This document shows positions 3,071 through 42,217 of a stretch of 64,000 nucleotides of DNA, one piece after another. The translations under genes were made by a program, and so were the position numbers. Numbering within the stretch: the stretch's first letter is position 1; the number at the start of each line of letters is the position of its first letter. The notes beneath the pieces were generated by a model that was not told the DNA's origin, made no database searches, and worked only from the letters and a program-made list of their open reading frames with translations. This stretch comes from Eledone cirrhosa (lineage: Eukaryota), in contig OZ024745.1 of the NCBI GenBank assembly GCA_964016885.1, positions 47,988,001 through 48,052,000 of the forward strand. The letters are read 5' to 3'.

Positions 3071-5689
3071 GAGGTACTGCTCAGACTGGAGTGTAGTATC
3101 TTCCCTCTGCCTTTCTTTTGTCGCTTGATTCTTTTCTTTTTTGTTCACTTTAATAGTGTGTTTTGTTTTGTATAAATAGCTTTGTAAAATAAATAGCAAT
3201 TATTATTTGTTTTTTAAATGATAGTTGTGTTTAATGAAATACAAAATCGAATGATGTGGATGTATTGAAAGGCTACCTTGAGAGTGGCTTTTAAGTTAGT
3301 TTGAAACGTTAATAAAAGAGTTAGTATCGTATGTCAAATCCGTGTAGGGCCTACCTTTGTACACAATATATAGTTCTAATAACCCGAAAGTATTTTACTT
3401 TGTCATTTTCAGTGACATATCAATTAAAGGATTTTTGATTTCTTTTTTTATTGGCCGTTTCTTTAGAGCGTTGTTATTAAGATGAGAAATTATAAACAAA
3501 TATAATATCTGAGAAAGTGAAAGCGGCACGCTATACTCCAAGACCACCTACTACTTTTCTTACCTAGTTTAGTCCTCAATAGTGACTTTCCACAAGAAAC
3601 ATTTAAAGTAGACCTGTATTATGAACCCCATTGAAAGCAAAGTTTTTAATATTGCGTATAAAATATAGCAAGCAATCACTTTTTTTTTTATATGGTATTA
3701 GTTTGATGACATTTAAAACTGAATTTGAACTAGGAGGTAATAGTAAATATTGTTAAACATAATACAATTTCCGTGTTTTCAAGTATGTTATAAAAAGATC
3801 GGGAGTGTATCTAAAATGTATTAAAAGCAACAGCTTTCAGTTTTAATGAAGGTCACATCAACCTTCAACGGATCCCTTTCCGTGATTGAGCGCACATATT
3901 TTTAAAGGAAGGAAACAAGACACGAACAAGTTTCCCTTAAATAAACCTTTATTTACAGTAGCAATAATAATGACAAAGTTTCCCTTTGTTCTTAAATACA
4001 AACAAAATTACAGAAACTGCGCTTATTTAAAATATGATAAAGAGTGACATATCAAAAGAGTATTTATATAGAAACAAAATTTTAAAATAAAATCTTAGGA
4101 GAATGTTAAGATTATGCAATATCCTAAGATTAATCCAATTAATAAACACGGAACCAAAACTAATTTCTGACGAAAGACAAAACCTTTCACATTGGAATAA
4201 GATAGTGTGATGGGGTTCATGTTTTTCTCAAAAGAATGACATGCTTAGAAACCAAATCAACTTATTTTTTCGTTTTGATTGTATATTTTTGTCTATTATA
4301 TTTATAAGGTCTCTAGCAATAATTAATTGATTATATGTATTTCTATTTAATTTTATATATTTGTTGCATGGTAATAAACTAAAATTTCATTTGTTATCAT
4401 GAAGGAAACTTTAAAATTAACCAAAATCGATGTCGAGTATCATTGACTACAGATCTTGTACGAAGAAAATTAAAATAAGACTGATTCACCGAAATCATTT
4501 CACTCGTTGACTCATATAATATATGTGTGTGTGCTTGTTATATATGTATAGCCAACGAGGGATTCCTACCCCGTATACGCAAAGAATCCAGTGATGAGTA
4601 GGACGAAATATTTTCATTTATCTGCATTTAATATTCCAAATTTCTTCCAAAAGTAAAAAGTAAGCTCCTCATATTGATCGGGAATGGGGATAAGATAATG
4701 TGGTAGTGTTCATACCTTTCTCAAACGATCAAAATTAAATTTAATTTTCAATAACGCTTCAGATTTTAAAAGCTGCGGCGATCATTAGAGATGCGATTTC
4801 AATAATTCCGAACAAAGTTGAAACTCGTAAACTTAACTAAAACATACGACCGCAACACGAAATGTTATTCGAAAATTCATAGCAAATTTCTCAAAGTATC
4901 GTTTATATTGCACTCGGTACGTTTAGTGAAATTCAGCTATACATTCTTATTAACGTGACAATAAAAAAAGTCCATAAAAGAAATTGAGACACTAATTAAT
5001 CTATTAATCTAATTAAACTAATCACACGTGTCTACTCAAAATATAAGCTAGTACTTCGCTAATGAAGCACATTTCTAATAGATAAAGAAAATTACATCCC
5101 AGAAATACGATATAGGATATGATTAGCCAAATATATTAATGCACTGAATGACTTGAGGTTGCATATTCAAATGATACAATTTTTGAGGAGTACTAAGATA
5201 AAAATATTGTCAAAGGAAACATTAGTTAAAACAACCAGGAAACAGCCTTGATAATTATCATAAATTGAAATAAATGTAAAAAGCCAATCGTTTAATTTAT
5301 GAAAGACCATATAGATCGTTTGGTAAAATAAAAAAAAATGATAAAAGAAATAAATGGTTTGTGTGTGATATGAACAGGGCAAGTCTTATATTGACTGAGA
5401 TGAATCTATTCTAATATTATGAAAAAAATTCAAATGTTTTAAAAAATCCTCAAGCGGAATTTCGGAATAAGCATTCCACGTATATCTATCTCCCTGTTCA
5501 AAATATAAATTCCAGAAGAAAAAAAAAGTTACATAATTTATGTGCGGGGGTCTATTCCGAAACTCCACTAACGACCATTAGTTATTTTCGGTTTGCAAAC
5601 CTTATGAAAATAGATTAATTACGGCATACAACATGCAAATATTTCAAAGAAAATAAAGGAGGGAAAAAATTATCTTAATCGATTGCTAC

Positions 5690-5863
5690 CTGCGCCTGTC
5701 CCGGTACTTGGGGAACCTGCATTTGACTTAATGCTTCACTCAAATCATGAATGTCGATAGAACCGTCTTTATTCACATCAAGACGGTTAAAAAGTTCTGA
5801 CAGTTTCTGTGTTTCTTCTTGTGGAAGATCATGATGAGAAATGTTAACCTGAGAAGACGACAT
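5690..5863 (-). CDS. SCaMC: Calcium-binding mitochondrial carrier (SCaMC, SLC25A24/25-like), first coding exon, EF-hand 1
   Basis: MSSSQVNISHHDLPQEETQKLSELFNRLDVNKDGSIDIHDLSEALSQMQVPQVPGQAQ contains the EF-hand loop DVNKDGSIDIHD. The exon ends at a phase-0 CAG|GTAGCA donor, as expected for SCaMC exon 1. No later exon was recognised in the window. Confidence 0.8.
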
Positions 5864-6546
5864 TTTAATAATCACATGAAATTCCACTTATTATGCTCGC
5901 AGAGAAGCAGAGTAAGACCGCAGCAAATGACGACTGACTACATTACAACCTGAAAACTTTATTATTCTTTTTTTTTTTTTTAAGTTATATATATATTGTT
6001 CCGTTATATTGGAATAAAAATTTCTGATTTTAAATTTAAGCAAAATAAAACATCACAATACATTTGCGAATATTTTTCGCAAGTTCAATTAATATTGATT
6101 AATGATTTTATTAGTAATAACTTATACATTTTTTTTCTTAGATATAAATTGTGGATTTTGTACCTATTATATTTTCATTTTATCTTAAGATTTACACGTG
6201 GAAAATAGCAATGAAAAGACGTGAAAATATCGCAAGTAGGAAATTACTTCAAGAAAAATAATGTTGAAAAAGATCTTTAAATTATTTTTATGACAATAAT
6301 CAAGATTTTAAACTGCATTTATTATTAATTAATGGAGCCAACAAGTACCCCCTACTACACGGTCGTTCGACCTGCTAGAAATATCAGTAACATTACACCA
6401 ACTCCTGGTCCTTTAGGATATCAATGACATAATCGAGAATGTAAATACATTCATTATATCGAACATGCTTCCGTTATATATTTTATTCATAGTTGTATAA
6501 ACAACATTACAACTTGTTTATAATTCTTATAAAATGGAAATATAAA

Positions 6547-18075: not shown

Positions 18076-19452
18076 ATGCCGTTTTCCACCTCACCTCCCG
18101 AAAATGCATATTACACAAATAACCTATCTTCGAATGAAGTAATGCAACAACCATCACCGATAAAACTTAAATACGACAGAGACTTCATTCTAAAGTTACA
18201 ATATAATGAAGCTTCACTCACCAAACCAGTCGGACTTCCAGATTTGCCAGAAATATTATTTAAAAAACCACAATTTCCGAAGCAGGTTAAATATAATAAA
18301 ATACGGCGAGATATCATACCTTTTAAATGTTCCAAAAATATGAAGTCTGTGGATGACTTTGGAAATGATTCGGAGGACGAAGAACTTAATACGAAGATGA
18401 AGAACATTGCAAGTAGACTAGCACCGGAAAAATATAAATCTGTTTTGTCACAAATACGAGATATTCAGATTGATAAAGAAAGCAAGTTAGTGGCTATTAT
18501 GAATCTTTTGTTTGAAAAAGCAACCAGTGACCCTATGCTATCGACAGCATATGCTTACGTGTGTCGTTGTCTGACTTTGAAACGAGTTCCATCCGTCCAT
18601 TGCCACAAAGAAGTTGTAAACGTCCATAAAGTTCTTAATAAGAAATGTCAAAAAGAATTCGAAAAATACCAAGCTGAAGAAGCAATGATAAATAAGAAAC
18701 TGCAGCAAATTGAGAAATCTGAAAGCAATATGGAAAAATTAAAATTTCAAACTGAACTTGTCAAAGAAATTGAAACTTTCAAGAGAAAATCGCAAGCAAA
18801 TGTTCGGTTTCTCTGTGAATTGTTTAAATTGGGTGTATTGAGGGAGAACACCATGCAGAAATACATTAAAAGAATGCTGCAGTCCCTTTCAGAAAACAGT
18901 TTGGAAAGTGTATGTCTTTTGTTTAATACAATAGGTGAAAGACTTGACTCAGGGAAAAAGTTTAAAATGGATGTGTATTTCATCCAACTAAAAAGTATCG
19001 CAGAAGAAAATTCAACCCCGAACAGACTGAAGGTAATGATTGAAAATCTGATCAGTTTACGTGAAAACCAATGGAATCAAAAAGAGGCCGAGAATCACAC
19101 AAAACAGAAGGGAAATACGAGTATAAAAGATGGCATGAAAGAGGAAACTATAGCAAATAGTTATTATAACAAAGGCAAAGATATTTACCAAAACGGTGAT
19201 GGTTCTACAGCTTCTAACATGGGAGATAGTTTTCCCCCTTCCAGCTCATCCTATCAACAACAACATATGAAAGAAGAGTACCTCAAACCTGATTTTATGA
19301 AAATCTTCGATATTGACTCTCAAAATAAATGTACGGAAAGAAAGTATTCTAACTTCGTTTACGATGGACCGAACAGGGCCTCTGCCCGAGGAGATGTGAT
19401 GATACCGAACTGCAGCCCAAATATCGTTAGAGAGACCAAAGAAGCTGTTTAA
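18076..19452 (+). CDS. EIF4G: Intronless eIF4G-like protein (eIF4E-binding motif plus a single MIF4G domain), probable retrogene
   Basis: Uninterrupted 458-aa ORF. KYDRDFILKLQ plus ASLTKPVGLPDLPEIL are the canonical and non-canonical 4E-binding motifs. The MIF4G domain reads FEKATSDPMLSTAYAYVCRCL, KCQKEFEK, NVRFLCELFKL, SLESVCLLFNTIGERLD, MDVYFIQL, LRENQW. An in-frame TGA at 18052 with no AG before the ATG supports this start; AATAAA lies at 19839. Confidence 0.9.
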   Translation: MPFSTSPPENAYYTNNLSSNEVMQQPSPIKLKYDRDFILKLQYNEASLTKPVGLPDLPEILFKKPQFPKQVKYNKIRRDIIPFKCSKNMKSVDDFGNDSEDEELNTKMKNIASRLAPEKYKSVLSQIRDIQIDKESKLVAIMNLLFEKATSDPMLSTAYAYVCRCLTLKRVPSVHCHKEVVNVHKVLNKKCQKEFEKYQAEEAMINKKLQQIEKSESNMEKLKFQTELVKEIETFKRKSQANVRFLCELFKLGVLRENTMQKYIKRMLQSLSENSLESVCLLFNTIGERLDSGKKFKMDVYFIQLKSIAEENSTPNRLKVMIENLISLRENQWNQKEAENHTKQKGNTSIKDGMKEETIANSYYNKGKDIYQNGDGSTASNMGDSFPPSSSSYQQQHMKEEYLKPDFMKIFDIDSQNKCTERKYSNFVYDGPNRASARGDVMIPNCSPNIVRETKEAV

Positions 19453-19838: not shown

Positions 19839-19844
19839 AATAAA
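19839..19844 (+). terminator. Candidate polyadenylation signal of the eIF4G-like gene
   Basis: AATAAA about 390 nt after the stop codon, followed by T/GT-rich sequence. Confidence 0.55.
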
Positions 19845-23123: not shown

Positions 23124-23314
23124 TCAGAATTGAAATCCATCCATTGGTACATCCTGACCAGCACTAAACTGGTATTGTTGAGCACTTTCATCAGTTAAAG
23201 GAACAATACTTTTATCCTCTTCTTCAGTGCCAAAGTAACGTTCAATTATACCAAAAGCTTTTTGATAAATCTCTCGGTTTTCATGACTTTGCAGAAATTC
23301 AATCTTATCCAGAC
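23124..23314 (-). CDS. KPNA6: Importin alpha coding exon 13 (terminal)
   Basis: [29 protein letters not shown]...VPMDGFQF* (TGA at 23124-23126). Confidence 0.95.
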
Positions 23315-24049
23315 CTAGAGAAAATGAAAAGGTCAAATTTATTAATTAAGGGAACTAGATTTATTTACTCTTTTATTATTATATTTCTAATGAAAGACAC
23401 AGAAGTTCACTTATAATAAACATATATTCAGGCTCATTGAGAGTATTTAAGTATATACTTTGAATCACTGTTGGATAAGGGCAATTGTTAATTATCCACA
23501 TAACATATTGAACCATGCAACATGTATATATTACTAAAAATGTAATTCATTGTTTTTGAATCAATTGCCAAGCTTACTCTTTTGACCCTTTTCATACCAA
23601 CCCATCCAGAATCACCACTGGTTCAATGAAATAAAATAAAACATTTAAAAATGTTTCTACTTAAATTAAAATCTTCCAACATAATTTGATATAAGTACCT
23701 TTCGTTAAATTATCTTACTAATTCTATTTTAATATAGAAATAATTAATAATTTTAGTAAATCCATCCATTCTTCATTAATTCAAATATAGTATATTTCTT
23801 TAGAAATACAGTAATGAAAGGGTTAAATTATACAACAGCATGTTTACCAATCTAAACCATTCAAATTATTCAATCAACCAATTAGTTTATATCGTTTCAT
23901 ACAAACTATAATACAACATAGAAGTTTCTGTAATACAAAATATCCAGTAGTAAAAAAACTACAATATACTTAGCAATAAAGAAACCAAAAAAGAAAGTAA
24001 AATAAGAACAAGTAAGAGAAAAAAGTGAAAAAAAAAAAGGAGTGGAGGA

Positions 24050-25370
24050 GACAGGTTTACCCTTCAGTAAGCCATCTCAGCCCTCAAACATGAGATCAAC
24101 CTGTTCAAGCCTGAGGTCGTAAATATAAGCAACGGTGAAGCTGATTTTCAAGATGCCATACTCAGCATCTAACCCTCCCTGACTTGGGGCTCAGCTAATG
24201 CTGAAAGATGCCATCTACATTCTCGGCTCTCCAATCTGCCCAAAAGCCATATGAGAGTACTTGGAGACCAAGCATGAGGATCTGGTGACTACAACAGAGA
24301 GATCGCACCTCATTGACACATACCTGGTGCTCTTCTGTATGAGGAACTGCTTTGCTCTCCCCAAACTCCTCTTCATGTTGCACAGTGCGCTTTGTTAACC
24401 TCTCGCAGATTGCCTCATCAAACTCTAGGCCACCATCTGATGTTGTGCTGACCTCATATGTAATGTTTGCTTCAACAGCGTCGGCTGGAAAATCCATGAA
24501 ATTTGGAGGCCTCAGCCTCTGATCCACTTTTGTCCTGGCACTGCAGGCCTATCTCTCCTCTAGCTGCACTCTCATCAAGGTCCTTCATAAGACGGCAGAA
24601 CCTTACGTGGCCTGGGCACTGGAGTCAGCTCTGGCCAATTGGACAAATGAAGGCCTTGTTGTTCCCCAATATACAGATGTTCAATGTAACTGGGACAGCA
24701 GCAAATGTAGGTCTACTTTCAGACAAATTGAGTTCACTTTGGACCAACAGTCTCACAACCAAACAGCAGTACATAGTTCAACTCGATGTTTTTCTCATCA
24801 ACTGGTACCCTGATGAATGAACTTGCATCGGAGTAGACCAGTGCCTTGGCTTTTGCATGTGTGAGCCACATAAATCCCACTGTGGAGCTATTGTTGACAA
24901 GTTTGGTCTGCACCTGCTATCATGCCGCCATAACACAGGCTAGTTCCCGACACCTTACTCTGAACAACATCATCAGAAGGAGCCTCAATGCAGCCAGCTT
25001 CCTGTCACAACTAGAGCCAACTAGCCTTGGCTGTGGTGATGGCAAGTGCACTGATGGAATAACCCTCTTCTGATTCAAGGGAAATAAATTCCTAATCTGG
25101 GATGTGGCATGTTGTGACTCGTTCTCCGCCTTCAATGTAGGAGAAAGGAAAATGACTAAATACCGGGGCTTGACCAACAGCTTCCGTTTTGTACCAGTCA
25201 CCGTCAAGACCTCAGCACTTGGTCTCAGCATTGCTGATTTCCTTCATAAAATCGAAAAGACAGCAGCCCGCCTGAGGAAGGAGCCCTGTGAGGTGGTGTA
25301 GTTGTTACAGCAAGTGTTGCTGGCCATTCCCTGTGGCAATACTTTTGCCATTTTATCTGTAGAGCACAGC
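24050..25370 (+). mobile_element. Decayed CRE-type RT/RLE retrotransposon in an importin intron
   Basis: RHLTLNNIIRRSLNAASFLSQLEPTSLGCGDGKCTDG..IWDVACCDSF..KYRGL..FVPVTVKTS. Confidence 0.75.
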
Positions 25371-25470
25371 CCAAACAGTCATAATTATATAAGCCAATGT
25401 TTTCAAATTAGGTTGTCTTTTTATAACTTTTAATAAAAATGATTTATTTTTTTTATAATGTAGTTAGGAC

Positions 25471-25656
25471 TGTTTTGGGAAAGCCAGTACAATGCAAGTT
25501 CAACATCACTCTACATTTTTTTTTTTTTTTAAAAAGGGGTCCTAACCACCAAATATGAAATATAAGGTAAAAATGTAAACTGTTTTGTTGGTCTTATTTT
25601 AGTCTAGTTTTCACTCCTTTATTTCAAACTTGCATTGTACTGCCTTTCCCAAAACA
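25471..25656. mobile_element. MITE-like element with about 30-bp TIRs
   Basis: tgttttgggaaagccagtacaatgcaagtt ... aacttgcattgtactgcctttcccaaaaca. Confidence 0.65.
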
Positions 25657-25862
25657 TGAATAAATTTTCTCTGAAACAGTTTTTGTTTCATTTAATGTCT
25701 TATTAAAGTTAGTGTGGTAGGGACTGTCTGGAAAATATGTTCATATGGATTGCACAATGGCATAAGGATTCTGTGACAAGTAAGGGAACCATTAGAATTA
25801 GCATATACATTAATACCTTAAAGGTCATAAAATTAATATGGACACAAAAATAACCTACTAAC

Positions 25863-26038
25863 CAAAACATTCTTCAATACTTATAGCATAAGGATTTGTG
25901 TTGCTGTGTAATTTGGCATCTTGTTCTCCAAGGCGTAAAATATTTTCAAGACCATTGAGAGCAACATGAACAATTTTGCTATCCAAAACAGTCAACAAGT
26001 TACATAAAGGAACAATGCATCCCTGATCTACAAGAAAT
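25863..26038 (-). CDS. KPNA6: Importin alpha coding exon 12
   Basis: [58 protein letters not shown]. Confidence 0.95.
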
Positions 26039-27489
26039 CTGAGAGTAAGAAAAGAAAATTTAGATGACATATTACAATATTTAACACCTAAGTTGAGTAA
26101 AATAGTTAATATAACAAATATACAGAAAAAAAAGAAATTCAGAAAATTTTACAAAAGTAAAAAATGAATTTATTATGAACCTTGCTATGTAAGAATGTAT
26201 TTCTTAGAGCAACATGTTTCCTCTAATCAATTTAAAACCTTGGAATTTGATAATTGTAACTGAATATGTGTATAAAATAAAGGCCTTGTATAAGGGCTTT
26301 TGGATGTTATTTATAATGGAATGGCTGTAAAGTGCCATACAGCTTATTTTCTTTTTTAACATTGACTCCACTACATTATGAGCTAAAATTTGCTGATAAA
26401 CTTTCACTATTCATTCCCCTGGGTACAACATTACCTTTAATATCTAGCCAGTCTTTCAGATGATGCATGTTGTCTTTCATGCAAGTTAAACATAACATCC
26501 TAAAGATTATATATACCTGCAGTTTAACAACAAACCAGTAAAAGAATAAACCATTGTTGATTTTAAATAGAATCTCTACTTGTATTAGGTGAAGTACTGA
26601 AGTATTTGAAATTTTGTCAACCTTAGTTTAGGAAGAGTGAAATCTTCCAAATGAAGAATGTATTTTTTTTTTTTTTACTGTTTGCTCAGAGTTCTCTTGA
26701 TTTGTCCCATCAGATGCCCCACGTCTGACATTTGATTGACATCTACTTTGTTGACTTGTACATTGTGGATGATGTTTGTTAAAGTTATGGACTGCTAATA
26801 AATATATCTTCATTGATACATATGGCACCTCTGTCAGAGATTCCATCCTTACTGACTGTTAAAGAGGACATAACCTAACATAAGGATTTCTGTATCTAAT
26901 TTATTTTGTGCTATATTGCTTTGGAACAAGCTTTTGGGAGAAGCTTCTATTTAGCTTAATAATAGCCATCATCATTTTCACATCTATTTTCCTGTGCTAG
27001 CATGGGTTGGATAAGACATTTTTTTAGGCAGTAATTGATAGCTAGATTACCCATCTTGCCCTGTTCCTCTTTTTAAATAAGGTACTGACTTTCACACATT
27101 GAATATTAACACTTCTAAATATTCTTACAGATAACTTTACCCTTTTTTAAAATCCATATTTTTCTAGCATATTGATGCCAGCACTTATTCAAATTTCAGC
27201 AAATTCAAGAAGCATAAAAATATCATCTTCCTTTCTAAAAATGTGGGTGATTTCATTCCACATATATAAACAGGAAAAATATGCATGCAGAAACACATTC
27301 ATATGAGTAGTACAGATTAAATAAACTTATTGACTTTATGTCCGTTTTTCCATTCTGGTATGGGTTGGATGAGACTTTTTGAAAGTATTTCTATGGCTGC
27401 ATACCCATTCTGATGCCCCCACTAACTTAATATTATGAACTGCATTAGCAATATCAGGTAGAAAGCAAAGAGAAGAGACAAACATACAC

Positions 27490-27780
27490 ATTAGTGGTTA
27501 GAGAGTTGGATTCACAATCTTGAGGTTGGGCATTTGATTCTCAGACTGGGCAATGTGTTGTGTCCTTGAGCAATACACTTATTTCCCATTGCTCCAGTTC
27601 ACTCAGTTGCAACGTCACTGATGCTAAGCTGTATCTGTGGCATAAAGTGGGAGACTGGTATGAATGGGTGAAAGCTGGTTGTCCACGAAAACACCTTGCT
27701 CAGGCTAATGCCTTGGAGGGGAACCTTCTAGGTGCCAAACTCATGGTCATTCGAAACTGAAGGGGGGTCTTTAGCCTTTA
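27490..27780 (+). mobile_element. Second tRNA-derived SINE family (CORE-like)
   Basis: TAGTGGTTAG A-box, decayed B-box, then GTGTCCTTGAGCAA..CACTT..TTGCTCCAG. Partial copies occur near 1430-1545, 34620-34760, 41740-41780 and 55620-55710. Confidence 0.6.
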
Positions 27781-27989
27781 CTCATATATATAACCCATGC
27801 CTGCATGGACCACAGTTTTAAAAGGTGGTGATGATATATATAATGGGCTTAATACAGTTTCCATCCACCAAATTCCTTCAATTTCCAATATGTTTAAATA
27901 TTTCAGTAAAACTGAAAACATAATATCAATTATGAAAAAAAAAAGTTAGTTTTAACTACTGGTTTTCAGTTGCAAGTAAAAGTTGCAAC

Positions 27990-28535
27990 TAAAAGTCTGT
28001 GATTGCTTTCTTGCTTGTCTGTAATGTAATACAACCAAAAGGGCACATAATGGGAAAATACTTTGAAAGGAAATTGACCCTGAAATGGGGATACAAATGG
28101 AATAAAGCAAGTTTCACGTAAATTGGCGCACGGGTTCGCGAGATATGGGGTTTTTCCGAGTACCTTCATAAACAGAGAGAGAGAGAGAGATAGAGAGAAA
28201 GAGATAGTGGTTGTGAGAGAGTGGATTGAAAGAGACATAGAAGGAAAGTGAAAGAGGGAGGGAGAGAGAGTTGGTGGTGTTGTGTGTGTGTCTATGACCA
28301 GTGTATATAGATCACAGACACATATATATACACACATACATATATATATGTAATACAAACACACACATTTATATATATACATACACACATATATATATAT
28401 GGGCCTTCCAGTTTCATTTCACATTATATACATGTTTGTACATATTCTAATTTTTTAAAATTATTTTTAAGTGACCATGACTTTTTAAAAATATTTTGAA
28501 GTGAACGTGACCCAATGGGTCACGGGTAATCTAGT
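27990..28535 (-). mobile_element. Helitron/Helentron-like non-autonomous element with internal microsatellites
   Basis: The 5' end is ACTAGATTACCCGTGACCCATTGGGTCACG (hairpin). It carries (TA)n/(CT)n tracts and has a second copy at 12090-12405. Confidence 0.5.
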
Positions 28536-28709
28536 TGTAAACTAAAAATTCAAATGAAAATAATATGATACTACAAAATATATGTAATTAAGCTGTGTAA
28601 AAAGAAAAAGCAACCACTTTTTATGTTATTAAAAATAGATCACACGACAGTTATTTTAAATATTTAGTTATTCTGAATGAAGTAATATTTTGTATTAATA
28701 AGATCATAC

Positions 28710-28837
28710 CGAATTTGTTCTGGAGAACCTCCAGATGTAGCATTTGTTATGGCCCAAGCAGCCTCCTTTCTTGTTTTAAACTCTGCTTTACCAAGAATTT
28801 CAATTAAAACTGGAAATATGTTGGCATCAATCACAGC
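28710..28837 (-). CDS. KPNA6: Importin alpha coding exon 11
   Basis: [42 protein letters not shown]. Confidence 0.95.
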
Positions 28838-28903
28838 CTAAAAACATAATAAATGAATTATCTTCAGTTTTCTATCAAAACAGTAATTATTAAGAATATT
28901 TAA

Positions 28904-29152
28904 CCCTTTCATCATTGTACTTCTAATCAAATATACTGCCTATGTGTTTCAGTTAATTTTGAAAATCAATATTTGGAGGAATTTAATAAGATAACTAAAT
29001 TTTTTATTAGTAAGCCGATATTTAGAACATTACTTAATATTTCTTCAATAAAATTGTGAGGTAAGGATTTAATATAAGTACAAATCATTTTAAAATGAGC
29101 TGTTTTGTATCACATAATCAGGGCAGTTTCAGGCAGTTCAGTATTAAAAGGG
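28904..29152. mobile_element. TTAA-flanked CCCTTT...AAAGGG MITE (piggyBac-like), representative of about 10 copies
   Basis: TTAA on both sides. Similar copies lie near 2310, 23585-23826, 32548-32725, 41025-41375, 46245-46568, 50437-50667, 52830-53072, 54838-55076 and 56400-56643. Confidence 0.7.
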
Positions 29153-29213
29153 TTAAGATATTAGTAAAATTAATATTAAACACAAATACTGCAAATATAA
29201 TAATTATCATTAC

Positions 29214-29339
29214 CTGTATTTGCATTCGGTTTCCTGCAGTAATATTTGATATTGTCCAACATGCTTCTTTTCGAACAGCTTCCTTAGAACTACCCAGCAG
29301 AAGTAGCAATGATGGCAATGCAGAGCAGTTCAAAATAAC
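29214..29339 (-). CDS. KPNA6: Importin alpha coding exon 10
   Basis: [42 protein letters not shown]. Confidence 0.95.
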
Positions 29340-29742
29340 CTAGAAACACAATGGTTTCAATTTTGCAAATTACTGATATACAAAAATAAGATAGCAGGAT
29401 GGATTGCAGATAATTTAGAAGAAAACAGTTGGTATATTGGATAAAACATTCCGACCCCCTACTATGTACATGATCCCTAACTCTGAGCGATGGCATGAAA
29501 TTCACCGAAAAATAAGTATGCATCACAGCAATGATGTAAAATGATTGCTGATTTGTGCAGAAAGTTGTATAAATAAGAGTAGTCAATACAGTATAATATA
29601 TCCCTTTATACATGTAAATATAAGATAGCCAATTTATACATGTAAATATAGTATAATCACTTTATATATTTAAATATAATATAGCCATCACCATCATCAC
29701 CATTTTACGTCCATTCTTCCACGCTAGCATAGGTTAGACGCC

Positions 29743-29780
<38 letters not shown>

Positions 29781-30305
29781 TCTTGCAATTGATATCCAAA
29801 GGTGGAGAGATACAAACAGTGCATTACACCAATCGCATTTAGTTTTAGATATTTTGAAAATTGACCGTAGGGTCAATTTTCCCTTCTATCTCTGGGATCA
29901 ATAAAATAATTACAGGAATTGATTCATCCAGCCAAACCCTCCTCTGTTTGTTTGTGATCATGTGCTAACATAAGAAATCAATATTTAAAGGGTGGTGGAT
30001 TGACAGATGTTGTAGTATTGGGTAAAATAGCACTGCAGTATTTGTTTTGAACAGGAGAGGTGACAATACACATCCTTGGCGGAGCCCGACTCCCACATTG
30101 TATGGTTTCAATTTAGCACCATTAATCTGAACATAAATACTTGGGTATTCATATAGAGACATCAGGGCAACAGCCAGCTGATGTTAAAACAGAGCCTAAA
30201 AACGAAAATGCTAAAATTAAAATAAGCATATAACAGTAAAGAAAAGTTGTTTGTCTAAAATGAGATAATATGTAAAGTATCTGAATAACAAAAAAAGAAA
30301 ATCAC

Positions 30306-30384
30306 CTGTGTTTGATAGTCATCACCAGTGACAATGTTACCAACAACACGGAGAGCTGCAGAAACAACACCCAAGTTGGAATTT
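30306..30384 (-). CDS. KPNA6: Importin alpha coding exon 9
   Basis: NSNLGVVSAALRVVGNIVTGDDYQTQ. Confidence 0.95.
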
Positions 30385-31161
30385 CTAGAGAAAGAAATAA
30401 AAAATAAATAAATTGCTCAATCAATAATTCAAGACAAAATAATTATAATTTGGAACATATTTAGAGTGGCTGATGAATGAATGGGGACATCACAGGTCAG
30501 AGAGGGCTGATTGGCCTTGAAGACTTGACAACCACTTTAGTGCTACAATACAATGTACCCATCACACTATATTAAATGGTAGTGGATGCCACGACAAAAT
30601 AAACCAAGTCCATTCTGTAAAGTGGTTGGTGTTAGGAAGGGCATCCAGCAGTAAAAACTGTCATAATATAGAGCATATGAGCAAGGTATGGTGGTTATCC
30701 AATCTATCTTGGATTGGACCATGACTTATTCCAGAATGGAAAGCAGATGATGATAGTGAAAGATAAAATATTTTTGTACTTCATGTTTAATTACTATTTA
30801 AATGAATACTTTCAATTCCAAGTATTGTTTACTTGTTTGAAAGCATTAGAAAAAAATTGCTTTTAGTATAACAGCATGGCAGCTTGAGGCAGTATCTTGC
30901 ACTATAGTAACCCTATCAACACTGTTTAATGTCTTCTGTGATAGTTGTTTATATTGCTCATAAACAATATATTGGGCAGTGTTGCAGTTTGGTAAACATT
31001 TACTGGCATATACCATACTTAGAATAAGGCATGGGTTACTGTCAAGTAGGACATATAGTCAGAGTTAAACCTGCCAGAAAACAGACCTCATCCATCCCAT
31101 ACAAGGATGGAAAAACCAGACATAGATACAATCATGATAACAATAATTTACTGCATTTTTT

Positions 31162-31299
31162 ACTAAAGAAATTTTAGCCTGATAGTGAGGCTTAGAACCC
31201 TCTAAGAGATGGAAAGAGATGAGTATGTACGTCAATACTCATCTTTTTCCATTTCTTAGAGGGTTCTAAACCCCACTATCAAGCTAAAATTTCTTTAGT
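31162..31299. repeat. Inverted repeat, 65-bp arms, 8-nt loop (intronic hairpin)
   Basis: 31162-31226 is the reverse complement of 31235-31299 apart from a few transitions. Confidence 0.9.
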
Positions 31300-31369
31300 C
31301 AAAACTACAACGAAAGCTATTTCTAATTTCAAACTCCCTCGCTGTTTCAAATACAAACTTACTTGATAA

Positions 31370-31580
31370 CAATAATTGTTTCTACTTTTGGCACAAGGCC
31401 AGCATTTTGAAGGGAAGGAGAAAGTCAATTAAATTGACCTCAGTATTTTATTTCATCAACCCCACAAAAATGAAAGGTAAAGCTAACCTCAGGGGAAATT
31501 TGAACTTAGAACGTAAAGGGATGTAACTATGCGGAAAAGCATGTTGCCCAATGCTCTACCGATACTGCCATTCCACCCAC
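31370..31580 (-). mobile_element. tRNA-derived SINE (dominant family)
   Basis: Reverse complement of the 10381-type consensus. Further minus copies lie at 44893-45076, 49868-50060 and 53780-53953. Confidence 0.8.
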
Positions 31581-31614
31581 TTATAGTGATAAGAAGAAGA
31601 AATGAAGCACTCAC

Positions 31615-31778
31615 ACTAAAAGTTCAACCAAACGACGGCAAACACCAGCATCTATTACTGCATGTATCTTTTCATTTGGCCCATCAGACAAATAGGATAA
31701 GGCCCAACAAGCATCTGCAAGTACATCTTTATCGGCATGGTATAATAAACGAGCCAACACAGGAAGAGCAGGAGAAAC
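31615..31778 (-). CDS. KPNA6: Importin alpha coding exon 8
   Basis: [54 protein letters not shown]. Confidence 0.95.
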
Positions 31779-32275
31779 CTGAAGGTAAAAAAAATACAAT
31801 CAATGGTTATTTTTAAAAAGCAAATTTATAAAGATTAATATTACTTTTAACAAAATAGTTTTGCTAAGAGTTTTATAGTGTAAATGCACACACATATGGG
31901 TGAAGGTATTCAAATTACAATTGAAGCCTTTTGATACCAAAATGCTTGAAACTGCTTCTAGTTCTATGATAGAAAATCTATTTGTTAAGTTTAGTTATTG
32001 CTTCACCTATTTTTCATGAAAGTGAGGAAGGCATACACAAATTAATTTGTTTCTTTTCTCTCTTAACCCTTTTGTTACACACTGAGGTTAACTTTGCCTT
32101 TCATTCTTCCTGGGTCAATAGAAAGTACCATTTAAATAGTGAGGTCAATATAATTGACACCGTCACCAATTGGTGACCTTGGGCCATAAATTAGAAACCA
32201 CCATTTACCAGTTAATAAAATAATGGTTAGTGAAATTAATCTTTTATTTCAATAATATTAGAAATATATATTTAC

Positions 32276-32375
32276 CTTTGCAAAGTCAGGTGGGGGGTTT
32301 TTCCCCCTGCATAAATTGGATAAGCACCACACTGCATTTCTAGTCATAGATAAACTTGGATGTTGGCTAAGCAAC
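32276..32375 (-). CDS. KPNA6: Importin alpha coding exon 7
   Basis: [33 protein letters not shown]. Confidence 0.95.
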
Positions 32376-34432
32376 CTAAAGAAAAATAAATAAATAAATA
32401 CTATGAGTAAATTAAAAAAATTATGCAAATATGAAGTAAAAATTATATTTAAAAAAAAATCATTGTTTAGTTTGATTAATTCAGAACATCCCAAACCAAT
32501 TATTTAATATTATTCAAATAAATTATTCATTAATGACATTCAATTAACCCTTTAGCATTTACATTACTCTATATTTACTATTGTATTTTCACAGTAAAGG
32601 CTTTATCTCACATAATATTGATATTTATTTTGAGAACAATACCTTAATGTCGGCATGAGTAACTGGTTTGAACAGAAATAGATGATAGAATTTTGGCCGG
32701 ATAAAGCCGGTTTAATGCTAAAGGGTTAAAGTATACAAGATACAACATATTCATTATTTTTGGCAACATAAATTTCATGAGTGTTGTTTGGTCTACTTGT
32801 GGAATTAACATCTAAGTGGCTGAGTATTCCACAGACATGAGCCTCCTTAACATATATCTCAGAGATTCAACATGAAACAAAGTAACAAAGCTAGTCTTTT
32901 GGATTGAAAGTACAGTTCATCTGAGTTTCTAAACAGCTTCCATCTACCCAATTTCACTTACAAGGCTTAGGTTGACAAAAAAGCCAGTGGGATAAAAATC
33001 AAAACTTTCTGATTATGAAGTGAACTTAAACATTCAGTCATGCTGCATTCCCTATATTTGAAAACAGCTGCATGTGAATTGCATATCTTTTGTTTTCTTT
33101 TTCAATAAACATTCATATAATACACAATATTAGAGCACTAACTTACTTTCCTTTTCTCTCTAATGCTACTACATTAGCTGTTGTGAAAAAGATGGTGGCA
33201 ACAACAGTGACTTTTTATGTGTAACAAATGAAACTGTGGTGTCAAAAAGGGCCTAGAAGCAGGATCACCAAAGGGATTTTAAACACATACTCATACTGGC
33301 ATGTAAAAATGGCAGTTTGACAACAAACTCTCTTTCATAATCTCATCCAAATTTGAAGTCACTTTTTTAGTTTACAAGGGAGCGAGTATGTAGTGACTTA
33401 ACCTACTAAAAATAGCAGCTAAATCTTCAAATCACAATATACCATCTTAAAAATGGAAAGGCTCATTGAATAATGTAGTCTTCGATACTGCGTATAAAAA
33501 AAAAAAAATGGGATGGTTATGGCTGGAACATCGTTGTTCATAAGTTTGTTGTATCAGAGTTGATCTTGTTTTAAAGAATAACATCTTATTTTCAAGTAAT
33601 AATGTCATTATAAATCTTACTATGATGAAAGACAAGTCTGGTTAGATACTTAAAATACTAAAGTGGAGACATGAAGCTGTATAATGCAAACAAGAAACGA
33701 CACAATGTACTTTAACTAGAGTTCTTACAAGTAAAGATTATACTTAGAACATTTTTTCGTGGTGCAGGTATATGTGTAGCAGAAAAATGGGTAGATAGAG
33801 TGATTGTTTAACAAAAAGGGGTCATGGTACAATGCTATGTTTGGATTAAAGTAAGTATATATTTTGGAGAAAACTAAAAAACCAATCCTTATTTTAACAT
33901 TGATTTTGTTGTAATTAGGTTTTTAAGTTAGCTGTGATAAGTGTGAATTGTAAAAGTTTCAGTTTAGTTCTTTGAAGGAGGAAATCCCCAAATGGAGAAA
34001 TTACTGAAAGAAAAACAAACACTGAAGAAAACTTAATATGGTGAAGATCAAAGAATGATTTTGTAAACCTTGATGAACTTATTTTGAAATGGACTCAAGT
34101 GAGTCAACAAATGTTGGTTGATCTTCATGCTAAGATACCATAATCTTGACTGACTTTGACAGAATTCATCAGATATTTCAACATGGACTTCAATTTCATT
34201 AGATTTTATCCTGAAAATGAAATATTCCTCTAGAAAAATGAGAGTGAATGTGTGTGTGTATTGGAAGTAATAATTGTTCTTTCTACTACTTCATATTATA
34301 ATAATAATGAAATTATTGTGTACAGTGCTCAGGTGCACAACAACTCATCAAAGGTGCATGCATAGTACATAGAATAATGTTCAAATGTCAGGAAAATGAA
34401 ATGAAAAGGAAAAATAAAATCAATAAGCTCAC

Positions 34433-34521
34433 TGTAAAAGTGGTACCAATATGCCTTCATTCAAAACATAGTTTCGACATTCTGGACTATCTCCTGCAAT
34501 GTTTCCTAGAGCCCACACAGC
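34433..34521 (-). CDS. KPNA6: Importin alpha coding exon 6
   Basis: [29 protein letters not shown]; tacag / gtgagc. Confidence 0.95.
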
Positions 34522-34949
34522 CTGTAAATGAAAATTTTTAACAAAATTTATAAAGGAAAAAGTAAATTCACTAATTAATAAAATAAAATAAAATAAAGCT
34601 ATTGGAATTAATGTTTCAGTCTCAAAGCATGAAAGTGCAATGTATTCTTAAGCAAAACACTTCATTTCATATTGCTCCAGTCCATTGAGTAGCCCCCCAA
34701 AAATGAGTATTAGCAACAGCAGCTTGGGGCTAACCCTATGATAGATCGATGTCCTGTTCAGTGACAAACAAACTTTCAGCCTCTAATAAAGTAATTAACA
34801 TTTCAAATATGTTTTATTCTAATAAGTAAATAATATTATATTGAACTGCTATTGAAGTGATCATTTTCTAAAATTTAAACACTATAAATTACAGCATACA
34901 AGTCAACCTTTTAAGCCTGAAAAAAAAAAATCTATCTAAAACTAGGAAC

Positions 34950-37948
34950 CAGTTTATAAGCTTTTCTAGGTGGGAAATGACAATGGGCTGGGTGGAGTAG
35001 GAATCATGCTAGCAGAAAAATGGGTAGATAAGATAATAGACGTAAATAGAGTGAACGACAGAATAATTAAAATAAGACTTGTCCTCAATAGAACTACTGT
35101 GACAATAATATCTGCGTATGCACCCCAACCCGGACTGCCTGGCATTATAAAAGACAGATTCTATGAGTCGTTAATGCTCATAACCTCCCAAATAACCGAC
35201 AGTGACTATATAATTATTGCTTCACTAAATCCCTGCCCCATGAAGAATGTACCTCCCAACATAGCCTCATAGTTAGCGACCTCATAGTCAGGATGAGACG
35301 TATTCGACAACAGAAGAGGACTATCTTTATGAGAAAAATATGGAAGTTAAAGGACCCCACAGCCAGTAATAAATTTACAAGCATATTACTTGATGCTTTT
35401 GACAGTAAGCAAGAGCAATTAGAGTTGTACAATATAGAGGAACAGTGGGAATTCCTGAAAGCTAACCTGCTGAAGGCAACAGATGAAATCTGTAGCTGGA
35501 GCAGACCTATAGGCAGGAGGAGAGTAACCTGGTGGTGGAACAGTAAGGTGGAGGAGTCAATCAAGGCCAAAAAGCAGGCTTGGAAAGTATGGTGGGATGG
35601 GGGAAGTAGAGAAGACTATCAAGTGGCCAGGAGGGAAGCTAGGAGACAAGTGTACTTCGCAAGAAGGGAAGCAGAGAAAAGAAAGTTCAAGCATGTTCTA
35701 CAATGCAAGGACCAAAAATGTGAGGTGTTCAGGATTGCTAGACAATCTGTCAAGGAGAACCGTGATATTGTCGGGGAGCAGTGTGTCCGTAATGATGATG
35801 GTGTACTTGCCATCACTGACGCTGATAAGAAGGTAGCTTGGAAGTATCACTACGAAAGGCTACTAAATGAGGAGAATGAATGGGAGAAAAACAGCCTCCC
35901 TCACATCGATCCAATAGAGGGACCAGCAGTGCAAGTTGAAGGTAGTATAATAAGTAAGGCAATCAAAGATATGAAGACGGGCAAGGCGGCTGGGCCTTCG
36001 GAAATATTTGCTGAAATGATGAAAGCATCTGGAACGGTGGGACACACTATGGTCACCCAGATAGTAAACCAAGTTATACAGAATGGGTCGTACCAAAGGA
36101 CTGGCGTAGTAGCATCATCATTAACTGTTACAAGGGTAAAGGAGACACCCTAGATAGGGGAAACTATAGAGGCATTAAATTAATTGACCAGGTCATGAAG
36201 GTCACAGAAAAAGTAATAGCGCAACTAATCAGAGAGCGAATTGATCTAGATGAAATGCAGTTCGGGTTTGTGTCAGGTAAAAGTACCACAGACGCTCTTT
36301 TCATTGTACAACTACAGGAGAAGTACCTAGCTAAAAGTAAACCCCTCTACTTAGCGTTTGTAGACCTGGAGAAAGCCTTTGACAGAGTCCCCGCTCCATT
36401 ATCTGGTGGGCTCTGAGAAAACTAGGTGTAGAATGGCTTGTGAGAGCTATACAAGCCATGTATAAAGAAACAGTCAGCAAGGTTAGAATTAACGAATATA
36501 GTGAAGAGTTTAGCGTAAAAGTTGGTGTTCATCAGGGCTCCGTCCTTAGCCTCCTCCTATTTATTATCACCCTCCAAGCTATAACGGAGGAGTTCAAGAC
36601 CGGCTGCCCATGGGAACTTCTATACACAGATGATCTAACGCTCATAGCCGAATCAATGGCTGAACTAGAGAAGAAATTCCAAACATGGAAGCATGGCCTA
36701 GAATCAAAAGGCCTTAAAGTTAACTTGTCTAAGACTAAAGTCCTAATATGTAGGAAGGAGAATAGGGCACTGGTCCCATTTGGGAAATGGCCATGCTTAG
36801 TGTGTAGGAAAGGAGTAGGCAGAAACTCCATTTTATGTCCCAAATGCAAAGTATGGGTGCATAAAAGATGTAGTGGGATCACAGGTAAGCTAATTAAGAA
36901 TATAGATTTTATATGTGGCCGGTGCTCTGGTGCAATAAGTAGCAGCAAATGCCCACAGAATACTAGCTCATTCCATTGCCCAGATGGTTCTATAGAAATA
37001 GTGGACACCTTCCGTTACCTGGGTGATAAAATCAGCAGTGGTGGAGGGTGCTCTGAAAATACTGTAGCTAGAGTCCGAACGGGATGGAAAAAGTTCAGAG
37101 AGCTTATACCACTATTGGCCGCTCAAGGTTTCTCTCTAAAAATAAAAGGCAGGCTGTATGATGCCTGCATACGAACAGCGATGTTACATGGCAATGAGAC
37201 ATGGGCCTTGTGTGCAGAGGATCTACGCAGACTGGAGAGGAACGAAGCTTGCATGCTCCGTTGGATGTGCAATAGTAATATACGCGAACGGCAAAGCATA
37301 AATGAACTAAGTGAGAAATTAGGAATAAGAGGGATCAGATGCTGTTTACTCGAAAGACTACGTTGGTATGGTCACGTGATGCGCACGAAAGATGACAGCT
37401 GTATAAAAAAGTGCAGGGCGATAAATAGACGGTAGCTACGGAGTAGGCAGACCCAGAAAAACCTGGGACGACTTGATAATAAAATCCGACCTCACACACT
37501 CACACCTCTCCAAGACAATGTCACTGGACCGAGATCTTTGGCACTACATAGTAATACAGAAGACCCGCCTTGGCTAAGTACAAAGCGAAACCTCTCTTAA
37601 CTAAAATACACCCCCGTCCCACTAACCCTACCCACACCGCCATCTACACCACCCCTTTCGATGTAAAGCTATGTTGGTACCACAACATCCAGTCCTAAAT
37701 AAATGAGGTTGTGTAGGTGTCACAACAAAAAAACACACAGTCTACGATGTAATGTGGCCGTGTAGGTAACACGGTAAAAACATCCCAGTTCACACTGTAA
37801 ACGTGGTTGGTGTTAGGAAGGGCATCCAGCCGTAGAAAATCCACCAGACAGTCCTCAGCAAGACAACCAATCTTGCCTCAAGTGGGCCAATTCCCGTCCA
37901 GACCCATGCTAGCGTGGAAAATGGATGTTAAACGATGATGATGATGAC
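34950..37948 (+). mobile_element. RTE-BovB-clade LINE, 5'-truncated and frameshifted, antisense in an importin intron
   Basis: APE endonuclease (GVGIML, ISAYAPQ), TWWWN, FVDLEKAFDRVP, GVHQGSVLS, LLYTDDL, FRYLGD and LRWYGHV, then a 3' tail ending GGATGTTAAACGATGATGATGATG. Confidence 0.92.
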
Positions 37949-38203
37949 GTAGGATACAAACATGATGAGTTAAAAAAAAAAGGAGATAAATATCGCACAT
38001 GATATTTTTTACTTATGTTCACATTTTGTCTTGATATATAAAGCACATTATTACAAAATTTATTTTTTCTAAAATAACAATACACCTATATATATAATCT
38101 TTTTTTTTAGTCAAGAGAATGCTTGTGTAGCAAACATTACTATGTTTTTGGATACAATAAAAAAGTTTTGTATAAATTATTAAAACATGAGACAGTAAGT
38201 GAC

Positions 38204-38335
38204 CTGTTCCTGCACATCTTCTATTTCAGATTCCAAAAGTTTGATGAATATAGGAACTGCTCCAGCCTCAATAACTACTCTTGTTTGAATAGATGTACCA
38301 GAAGCAATATTAGTTAAAGCCCATGCAGCTTCAAA
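38204..38335 (-). CDS. KPNA6: Importin alpha coding exon 5
   Basis: [44 protein letters not shown]; long poly-T tract before the acceptor. Confidence 0.95.
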
Positions 38336-38338
38336 CTG

Positions 38339-38371
<33 letters not shown>

Positions 38372-38401
38372 TATTTCAACAAAATATTATTTACCTAAAT
38401 A

Positions 38402-39060
38402 TTAGGTTAGACAGAAATTCTCACTGTTTCTCAAATTTTTATTGAATTTGGTGTTTTTTAACATTAGGAAAATTCTATGACAAAATAAACGCCAAGTTTT
38501 GGTAGGAGCGGCACATAGTGGATGACACCTTTCCAGTCCCACCAGATGCTCAGTAGAGCCTTGCGAGGGTGGAGGCAAGCCTTGCGAGGGTGGAGGCAAG
38601 CCTTTGCTTCCCATTGTGGCACACACTATCAACCCATGATCGCTTGTGCTTGACATAAATGTAGAGACACTATTTTTCATTAACAGTGACAGCGGAATGT
38701 AACCAGCTGGTTGTGCGATGGTAGGAGAACAGAGAAGTCACAGCTGCTGTAGGCATTTACGATTATGGTCAGGTAGATTGTGAGGCACCCAATGGTCCAA
38801 CTTGGACACATTCCATATTGCATGAAGTGATTGAGCATTGAGCAGAGTTGTTTTTGATGCCCCAAGCACTTTGGAGAGTTGATGTGGTGTCTGCAATCAT
38901 CAGAATGGAAGCATCTGAACCAGTTTCTGGCACTGCATTCAGACATGGTGTTGTAACCCAAATGCATTGTTAATGTGACAACTCAATGCTGCTGCACTTA
39001 GGCTAGATTTGAAGTCAAAGTAAACAACCACGATTAAATGATTTGTTAAGTTACTCTCAT
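38402..39060 (-). mobile_element. Mariner (Tc1/mariner) transposon remnant
   Basis: HTH-like MSECSARNWFRCFHS and the WVPH linker motif (LDHWVPHNL); TA|TTAGGTT terminus near 38402. Confidence 0.65.
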
Positions 39061-39330
39061 GATTCTTAAATTAAATGAATTTGGAAGATTTTAATTTAAA
39101 TAAGAACCCTTTAAAATAGGTGGCTTTGTTTCATAGAACCAAAGCCAGTTTTGGGTTAATTCAGAAGGGTTAATTCAACAATTACTTTTGGGTTAAGCCA
39201 GAAGGGTTAATTCAACAATTACTTCAGAAAAACTAACTTAGGGTTCTATATGTGTATTTGGAATAATCTACCACACAATTTCTGTAGGAGTACAACCATA
39301 ATTACAATATATAAAGTAATAAAACCATAC

Positions 39331-39422
39331 CTGTAATGAACAGTTTCCATCTCGTTGAAGAAATTCAACAAATTTTGGAACAACTCCAGTTAAAATAACT
39401 TCATCAATTGGTGGATTAGGTT
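39331..39422 (-). CDS. KPNA6: Importin alpha coding exon 4
   Basis: [31 protein letters not shown]; tttag / gtatgg. Confidence 0.95.
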
Positions 39423-39735
39423 CTAAAATTGAATAAAATAAATGTCAAATAAATATATGTGCACATGCATATTTATATATAAGCAGATATGCTAAAATAT
39501 CTAAGTATCCACAAATTAGCAAACATAATATGACCTTCCCCCTTCCCACACTACTTGCAACCCCACCAGCCTAACCACTTTAACCATCTTGACAAAACGT
39601 TTTTTTTTTCCTTCAATCTTCTAATACCTTTCCTCTTTCATAATGAAAGATTGACATCCAATATATGGAGACATTCTTTTTCCATGAAAAAGGGGGTAAA
39701 GTTCCATACAAATTAAAGGTTATAGGTACTTTTTA

Positions 39736-39773
<38 letters not shown>

Positions 39774-41802: not shown

Positions 41803-41899
41803 CTTTTGATAAGAGTTTTCGAAATTTTTGTGTTGCAGGTTCTTGTTCTTCTATATTGTCACTGTACAGAGCCTTTACCATTTCACTGGTAACACCACC
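41803..41899 (-). CDS. KPNA6: Importin alpha coding exon 3
   Basis: GGVTSEMVKALYSDNIEEQEPATQKFRKLLSK; atag / gtgatt. Confidence 0.92.

Positions 41900-42169: not shown

Positions 42170-42217
<48 letters not shown>

Follow-up and report, generated by a model that had tools for sequence, protein, structure and literature searches.

What does the uninterrupted open reading frame (ORF) at positions 18076 to 19452 of this DNA encode, and would its product promote translation or restrain it? A sequence-only reading of the window, that is, of the whole 64,000-nucleotide stretch from Eledone cirrhosa analyzed here, had proposed a retroposed and streamlined eIF4G paralog that could form an alternative cap-binding complex. 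We refer to the product as mini-eIF4G. Databases already contain it under generic names (eIF4G 3-like or 1a), and literature searches covering sources other than subscription journals and bioRxiv supplements found no paper on it. We propose, with about even confidence, that this conserved, likely retroposed coleoid eIF4G paralog would occupy eIF4E as a regulator and keep capped mRNAs from the normal eIF4F.

Results

An intact single-exon ORF with one recognized domain

The ORF runs from an ATG at 18076 to a TAA at 19450-19452, and its 458 codons contain no internal stop. It is the longest ORF of the whole window, and the probability of so long an open frame arising by chance at the local composition is ~5e-16. 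Start and stop are common to the orthologs described below, and an in-frame stop lies 21 nt 5' of the ATG with no AG in between. Thus, the intact frame claimed in the sequence-only reading was borne out. Contigs of DNA runs X1 and X2 cross the ORF with zero differences, and the only difference listed for run X3 lies outside it; the three runs come from a single sample, which may be the one that was assembled, and cover introns and repeats as DNA does. The following features were delimited, all on the plus strand.

18076..19452, plus strand: mini-eIF4G ORF, 458 aa, single exon without intron
18166..18267, plus strand: predicted eIF4E-binding region (aa 31-64), with canonical helix Y33-L39, elbow and noncanonical segment
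18268..18384, plus strand: shortened linker without the DFTP and SQQ blocks, ~50 aa shorter than in full-length eIF4G
18385..19074, plus strand: MIF4G domain (aa 104-333), from Pfam, AlphaFold2 and Foldseek
19075..19449, plus strand: tail of 125 aa, predicted to be disordered beyond aa ~347; its end is conserved in octopods, and it is absent in cuttlefish
19839..19844, plus strand: first AATAAA 3' of the stop

As predicted, MIF4G was the only domain returned by a Pfam scan of the 458-aa protein (aa 107-331, E 3.9e-30), which contained no KH or other RNA-binding domain. In a control scan of the full-length eIF4G of O. sinensis, the scores of MIF4G and MA3 exceeded the cut-off, and those of W2 and the 4E-binding domain fell just short of it. 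A sequence search of the PDB retrieved HEAT1 of human eIF4G1 and eIF4GII (E about 1e-46 to 1e-48), to which mini-eIF4G is 32-34% identical. Moreover, an AlphaFold2 model built from a 31-row alignment placed a helical domain with high confidence at roughly aa 101-340 and a short helix at aa 35-41, with a pLDDT of <50 for aa 1-32, 41-97 and 348-458. The top Foldseek match of this model was eIF4G HEAT1 (8HUJ, E 1.8e-15), and an ESM Atlas search returned MIF4G clusters only.

Using three full-length queries, we searched the 134 kb surrounding the ORF for exons of the MA3, W2 or N-terminal regions of eIF4G and found none, the ORF itself being the only match; the same search gave 19 C-terminal matches at the locus of the putative parent gene. 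Only 32 aa precede the eIF4E-binding motif, compared with 609-801 aa in four full-length eIF4G proteins. These results agree with the absence of MA3, W2 and the N-terminal region expected to carry the PABP site, as noted earlier. Neither the possibility that the ORF is one exon of a longer eIF4G, against which the sequence-only reading had cautioned, nor that of a decaying copy was supported. Two further claims fared less well. The supposed poly(A) signal, the AATAAA at 19839, occurs at chance level (0.63 expected per 400 nt). A tail of the size described (~120 aa) is present, but it is perhaps not wholly unique, because its first ~55 aa are weakly similar to the post-MIF4G sequence of the parent, of which they may be a remnant.

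The predicted eIF4E-binding region

A 4E-type motif begins at Y33, and aa 30-65 match the eIF4G1 peptide of PDB 5T46 (E 0.0022); the score of the region against PF05456 was weak and below the cut-off (E 0.013). In all five octopod proteins, Ile replaces the Leu of the Y-x4-L-phi consensus given in PMC10810786 and PMC4573856. The motif was thus rightly noticed and is followed by a noncanonical segment, but it reads Y-x4-I-L. The W-x-P segment N-terminal to the motif is missing from the octopod copies. Because of this loss and of the Ile, eIF4E binding may be weaker in octopods. The region is identical to that of O. sinensis at 33/34 positions and to that of Argonauta at 32/34, compared with 30/34 and 27/34 for the parent protein; mini-eIF4G and its parent share 20/34. 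Judged by identity, the predicted eIF4E-binding stretch is the best-kept part of mini-eIF4G. The distance from the motif to FEKA is 112 aa in mini-eIF4G, 105 aa in the cuttlefish protein and 159-189 aa in four full-length proteins. Alignments disagree as to whether exon skipping caused the deletion in the linker.

Orthologs in octopods and a counterpart in cuttlefish

When orthologs were sought as suggested in the sequence-only reading, four further octopods, O. sinensis, O. vulgaris, O. bimaculoides and Argonauta hians, proved to have full-length counterparts of 488-490 aa, with aligned identities of 89% and 78%; XP_036367469.1 and CAI9734292.1 are among these proteins. In cuttlefish, the corresponding protein measures 361 aa. 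Identity of the MIF4G domain amounts to 216/230 with O. sinensis and 208/230 with Argonauta (214/230 and 198/230 for the parent). The N terminus and the tail are less conserved than the core (Fisher p 2e-5 and 8e-15; O. sinensis and Argonauta), and all 8 indels relative to O. sinensis keep the frame; selection was judged at the protein level. Only 95/229 MIF4G residues are identical between mini-eIF4G and its parent, and in the tree the stem is long and the crown short, as when fast change gives way to constraint.

Besides the octopod cluster and ordinary eIF4G-like proteins, a profile search over 1.84 billion representatives retrieved the protein of 361 aa; Sepia pharaonis CAE1258657.1 belongs to its cluster. 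No longer homologs were found with a single-sequence query at E 1e-30; a profile query did retrieve longer ones. The cuttlefish protein has the same plan, with a short N terminus, a 4E region carrying a canonical Y-x4-L-L motif, a short linker and MIF4G, and it stops 2 residues past the last MIF4G tryptophan. It lacks ~10 residues of helix 1, and at human positions 770, 773, 783, 978 and 982 it has S, M or A (depending on the alignment), E, S and S. The cuttlefish proteins lie on contigs of at most 2117, 2140 and 2121 nt (8, 2 and 1 contigs), a transcript-like size.

In trees of 15-21 chosen rows, the cuttlefish and octopod proteins clustered with support of 100/99 (LG+G4) and of 99/98 under the C20 mixture, with NAT1 and the second full-length eIF4G of this genome included as long branches. 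They share 9 MIF4G residues that are absent from 12 full-length rows (5, 4, 5 and 1 in control pairings), and placing mini-eIF4G or the cuttlefish protein beside the eIF4G of its own lineage was rejected (AU p 0.003 and 0.001). An independent origin of the two short proteins keeps some weight, since long branches meet at this grouping and the cuttlefish MIF4G is nearer a full-length protein (105/221 identical) than octopod mini-eIF4G (87/220). On the evidence of these alignments, mini-eIF4G is probably older than the octopus-cuttlefish split. The paralog announced in the sequence-only reading is thus real, but it appears older and more widespread than a single species.

Origin and genomic context

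A genome search showed that mini-eIF4G is a single-copy gene (contig C5) and that full-length eIF4G exons, including MA3- and W2-region exons, lie on contig C28. Over the homologous stretch, the C28 gene consists of 9 exons, all with AG/GT ends, that form an open 424-aa frame interrupted by 8 introns. All 8 are missing from mini-eIF4G, 6 of them in well-aligned sequence and the other 2 bordering on the deleted linker, and the gene is therefore likely an old retrogene. Weak DNA similarity between the two genes spans 2/8 exon junctions and is otherwise patchy; the longest downstream A-run is 8 nt, a genomic poly(A) tract not being expected to survive at such an age. Together with the protein-level conservation and the lack of further exons, the missing introns support the earlier view of a retroposed, intact and selected paralog.

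The other eIF4G-family genes of this genome are NAT1 on contig C23 and a second, diverged full-length eIF4G at C22:19.86-19.88 Mb, which has the 4E motif, all seven conserved eIF4A contacts and MA3/W2-region exons. By sequence, mini-eIF4G is a member of the eIF4G family by descent. It forms a clade with the cuttlefish protein and the C28-type coleoid proteins at 96/98. Sisterhood with the C22 gene gave AU p values of 0.37 and 0.26 without the cuttlefish protein and was still unrejected with it (p 0.094), so the C28 gene is favored as the parent but is not proven. Retroposition from this gene is thus a likely, not a proven, origin.

Z markers were drawn from bioRxiv 10.1101/2024.12.09.627507 and from Table S6 of PMC10925132. 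Five of six marker families matched C28: Amnionless at 56.4 Mb, OCIA at 58.9 Mb, the eIF5/eIF2B family at 55.4 Mb, SNF5 at 98.7 Mb and OST48 at 99.0 Mb. The eIF5/eIF2B family gave two matches, either of which may be eIF5. The RH1 family, a proxy for the SPAG9 marker, matched on C1 and C1420 and not on C28. Since the parent gene lies at 78.4 Mb, between two blocks of Z markers, it is likely Z-linked. With these five octopus markers, C28 measures 136.5 Mb, far longer than the roughly 55 Mb of the O. bimaculoides Z axis. The two genes lie on C5 and C28 here, and on equal-sized contigs in O. sinensis and O. vulgaris, where they are therefore probably on the same chromosome. Apparently the locus changed place in one lineage, so that mere escape from Z does not hold as an explanation.

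An RT-bearing LINE is inserted in an intron of the parent gene (C28:78401281-78403841) and after it the final part of the exon upstream of that intron occurs once more (94% at the protein level). This arrangement resembles a long target-site duplication, and the duplicated exon end could offer an alternative donor. In the window, importin-alpha was confirmed as a neighbor of the ORF, tail to tail with it.

23127..47503, minus strand: multi-exon importin-alpha (IBB and Arm_3)
5678..5887, minus strand: EF-hand exon (Pfam, EF-hand only), which we take to be of the calcium-binding mitochondrial carrier type

A broken LINE with an RT and a PHD-like segment lies within an importin-alpha intron (34970-37435, plus strand), and the same family occurs at the C28 and C9 loci.

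A remodeled eIF4A surface and an unrecognizable or absent eIF3 segment

Ten eIF4A-contact positions were taken from papers. For one of them, we equated DAP5 N86 with human N770 through the 4IUL alignment, using a numbering offset that we presume to be correct. As described in the respective papers, eIF4A contacts comprise the site-3 tryptophan (PMC9177959) and S738, R764, S767, T773, Q779, Q783 and D982 (PMC7470955); the DAP5 mutation N86A abolishes eIF4A binding and keeps eIF3 binding (PMC4402527), F978A removes the high-affinity eIF4A site (PMC3074137), S767D does not bind wild-type eIF4A1, and neither T773I nor D982R is active when tethered (PMC7470955). The reference set contained 91 distinct regions from 131 long proteins with one clear motif pair, plus the parent. 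Seven of the ten positions are ≥95% invariant in these 92 rows, which are mostly vertebrate (8 are from molluscs) and not independent. All statements on binding made here rest on sequence and on human or yeast mutants.

18340-18342, plus strand: M89, aligned with the tryptophan of site 3 (W735 in human, W579 in yeast)
18403..18423, plus strand: remodeled eIF4A site-2 patch, with N110, A112, S113, R114 and A116 for human S767, L769, N770, K771 and T773
19033..19047, plus strand: remodeled eIF4A site-1 patch, with V320 and N324 for human F978 and D982

Six of the seven conserved contacts are changed in mini-eIF4G, namely, human W735 (to M/T), S767 (to N), N770 (to S), T773 (to A), F978 (to V/L) and D982 (to N). 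K771R, D982N and S767N are conservative changes. Q783, R975 and a Lys equivalent to R764 are kept, and Ser stands at position 779, which also differs from Gln in the octopus parent. The background of change is high, with 42/102 other invariant columns changed (41%), so that the excess at contact sites is modest (6/7 versus 42/102, p 0.042). The C22 eIF4G has 0/7 contact positions changed (p 0.0047 versus mini-eIF4G) and 22/102 other invariant columns; NAT1 has 1/5 changed, and both proteins kept N, T, F and D. These p values are descriptive, since the list of contact sites was assembled after the changes had been noticed by eye. The site-2 surface is identical in 5/5 octopod proteins, suggesting a partner for the new surface.

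In a wider sample of 118 rows (116 of 146 representatives covering ≥6 sites, plus mini-eIF4G and the C22 gene), 106 rows had ≤2 of the seven positions changed and 4 had 6 changed, these being mini-eIF4G and three fish gene models; S767 and Q783 were variable. The fish eIF4G-like models (Astyanax, Pleuronectes and Oncorhynchus) might be decaying duplicates or parallel cases. Two adjacent short eIF4G copies of Patella vulgata, XP_055958558 and XP_055958562, carry a 4E motif together with a helix-1 patch that is damaged. These copies fall outside the cephalopod mini-eIF4G clade in the tree, and convergent truncation or decaying duplicates would be possible.

The invariant block after the last MIF4G tryptophan is lost in octopod mini-eIF4G, with no significant similarity beyond it. 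The human eIF3-binding subdomains are placed at 1011-1104 in PMC7470955; this segment is unrecognizable in octopod mini-eIF4G and absent in the cuttlefish protein. Taken together, the substitutions suggest that mini-eIF4G likely no longer grips ordinary eIF4A.

Other eIF4F components in the genome

At an E threshold of 0.01, at least two loci of the eIF4E family were detected (C7:23836684-23844383 and C9:53.06 Mb), with no third class seen; judging from their motifs, they are presumably class I-like and 4EHP-like. None of the eIF4E loci found was intronless, nor was any eIF4A among the DEAD-box loci examined (30 of 52 matches). Two eIF4A1-type genes lie in tandem at C9:41781400-41819700. In the first (about 41.781-41.792 Mb), human E268 is replaced by Ala and D296 by His, and D265 and T298 are kept; the second keeps E268 and D296 (numbering from 6ZMW chain j). 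The exon peptides of the E268A/D296H paralog are open, as seen in one genome only. Long intron-free helicase frames (702 and about 1400 aa) at C2:363317990 (plus strand), C26:13.96 Mb, C23:0.31 Mb and C3:127.57 Mb are possibly other retrogenes. With two full-length eIF4Gs, NAT1, mini-eIF4G and two tandem eIF4As, the eIF4F toolkit is unusually rich here.

Discussion

Since most of the residues that grip eIF4A are changed while the 4E region is kept, a brake or switch is a likelier role for mini-eIF4G than that of a normal scaffold. In the model that we favor, retroposition from the eIF4G gene on the Z-marker contig would have preceded the octopod-cuttlefish split. Mini-eIF4G would bind eIF4E through the retained bipartite region and compete for it with the two full-length eIF4Gs. 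Because it would offer neither the eIF4A grip nor the eIF3-binding segment, and would recruit neither PABP nor Mnk, the cap complex left on the mRNA would be silent or paused. The remodeled MIF4G domain might serve as a dock for RNA or for another partner that picks the targets, and a germ line role is a guess by analogy with fly and mouse paralogs. Some evidence may count against such a regulator: the whole domain has drifted, several of the changes are conservative, and eIF4E binding is possibly weaker. In addition, the uniform site-2 surface of the octopod proteins suggests a partner, and one of the tandem eIF4As is changed at the residues that face eIF4G. Mextli also counts against it, being a 4E-binder with a MIF4G-like domain that can activate translation, as described in PMC4573856. 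The alternative cap-binding complex of the sequence-only reading is half right, because the eIF4A surface had not been looked at: the 4E region is kept, but 6/7 eIF4A contacts are changed and the eIF3 segment is unrecognizable or absent.

Other readings have to be weighed against this one. Octopod mini-eIF4G might have kept a helicase of its own, with the remodeled MIF4G pairing with the diverged tandem eIF4A in a private eIF4F that serves a subset of mRNAs free of PABP and Mnk control. We regard this as unlikely, although E268 and D296, kept by the tandem neighbor, are the residues used in PMC7470955 for obligate dimers with eIF4G mutated at S767 and Q779/Q783 (D296H included), and mini-eIF4G has S767N and Ser at 779 in a patch common to all five octopod proteins. 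The engineered dimers are charge swaps, unlike the changes seen here, position 779 is also non-Gln in the parent, part of the helix is gone altogether in the cuttlefish ortholog, the eIF4A paralog comes from a single genome, and only one class I-like eIF4E locus was found, which is a lower bound. That the two surfaces coevolved into a second octopod cap-binding machine, a natural obligate eIF4G:eIF4A dimer, is accordingly a tentative idea of low probability. An activator that does without the helicase, binding eIF4E and recruiting eIF3/40S through MIF4G to unstructured or germ line mRNAs, is quite improbable. It has a precedent in Mextli, a competitor of eIF4G for eIF4E that nonetheless stimulates translation by way of eIF3 (PMC4573856), and DAP5 N86A retains eIF3 (PMC4402527); a copy lying elsewhere could also back up a parent that is among the Z markers. 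However, the stretch that binds eIF3c/d/e is unrecognizable or absent, mini-eIF4G has no RNA-binding domain such as KH, and the backup argument is weakened by the probable shared chromosome in the two Octopus species.

Just as improbable, if not slightly more so, is the streamlined ordinary scaffold of the sequence-only reading, which would bind eIF4E and normal eIF4A without PABP, MA3 and Mnk sites, in an outline like that of yeast eIF4G. Its fold is intact, basic residues at 764, 771 and 975 and Q783 are kept, and middle-domain fragments suffice in tethering (PMC7470955). N770, T773, F978, D982 and W735 are nevertheless changed together, and single changes disable binding or activity in the human proteins; the two other diverged paralogs of the genome did not change N, T, F and D, and the helix is partly deleted in cuttlefish. 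A nonfunctional processed pseudogene or an exon of a longer gene is the least probable reading by far: the frame is intact in five octopod species and in cuttlefish, with domain-shaped conservation, frame-keeping indels and shared start and stop, and 134 kb hold no further eIF4G exon.

If the regulator model is true, mini-eIF4G would illustrate how a scaffold can be turned into a regulator by gene copying, and provided that the cuttlefish protein is an ortholog, the gene has persisted for about 300 million years (the octopus-squid split is put at 285-340 My, as cited in PMC10925132). If instead the private pair is true, it would be the natural counterpart of the obligate eIF4G:eIF4A dimers that have been built in human cells, acting on a selected set of mRNAs. 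Either outcome of a binding experiment would be informative, pointing to a new 4E-BP born from eIF4G or to a natural orthogonal eIF4F.

Comparison with known systems

Metazoan eIF4G1 and eIF4G3 (8HUJ, 6ZMW, 1HU3 and 5T46) have a homologous 4E region and MIF4G in the same order and fold. In contrast to them, mini-eIF4G lacks the N-terminal 700 aa, MA3, W2 and introns, its linker is about 50 aa shorter, and its eIF4A anchors and post-MIF4G segment are changed. On sequence grounds, it fails the canonical eIF4G features (eIF4A contacts, MA3, W2, the PABP-bearing N-terminal region and the eIF3 segment). PAIP1, SLIP1/MIF4GD, T. cruzi EIF4G5 and mimivirus vIF4G have the same fold at 11-16% identity (Foldseek) and are not its source. 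The 4E-BPs (4E-BP/Thor, Cup and 4E-T) resemble its predicted mode in bipartite eIF4E binding without helicase recruitment, but they are nonhomologous outside the motif, and mini-eIF4G carries a folded MIF4G. Drosophila eIF4G-2/Off-schedule and mouse eIF4G3, which we take to be long multidomain proteins, support translation, unlike the role proposed here. Like mini-eIF4G, they are lineage-specific or tissue-biased paralogs beside a general eIF4G, listed as testis-acting in a table of PMC3359775. According to PMC4573856, Mextli binds eIF4E, has a MIF4G-like domain and is a competitor of eIF4G, as proposed for mini-eIF4G, but it belongs to a separate family with a KH domain and C-terminal 4E motifs, whereas mini-eIF4G derives from eIF4G and has an N-terminal motif and no KH. 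We thus rejected both Mextli and 4E-BP as identities by homology. Specialized eIF4G paralogs are known, and DAP5/NAT1/eIF4G2 is likewise a truncated eIF4G relative. DAP5 still binds eIF4A but no longer has the eIF4E site, and mini-eIF4G, which kept the eIF4E region while its eIF4A surface was rebuilt, would be its mirror image.
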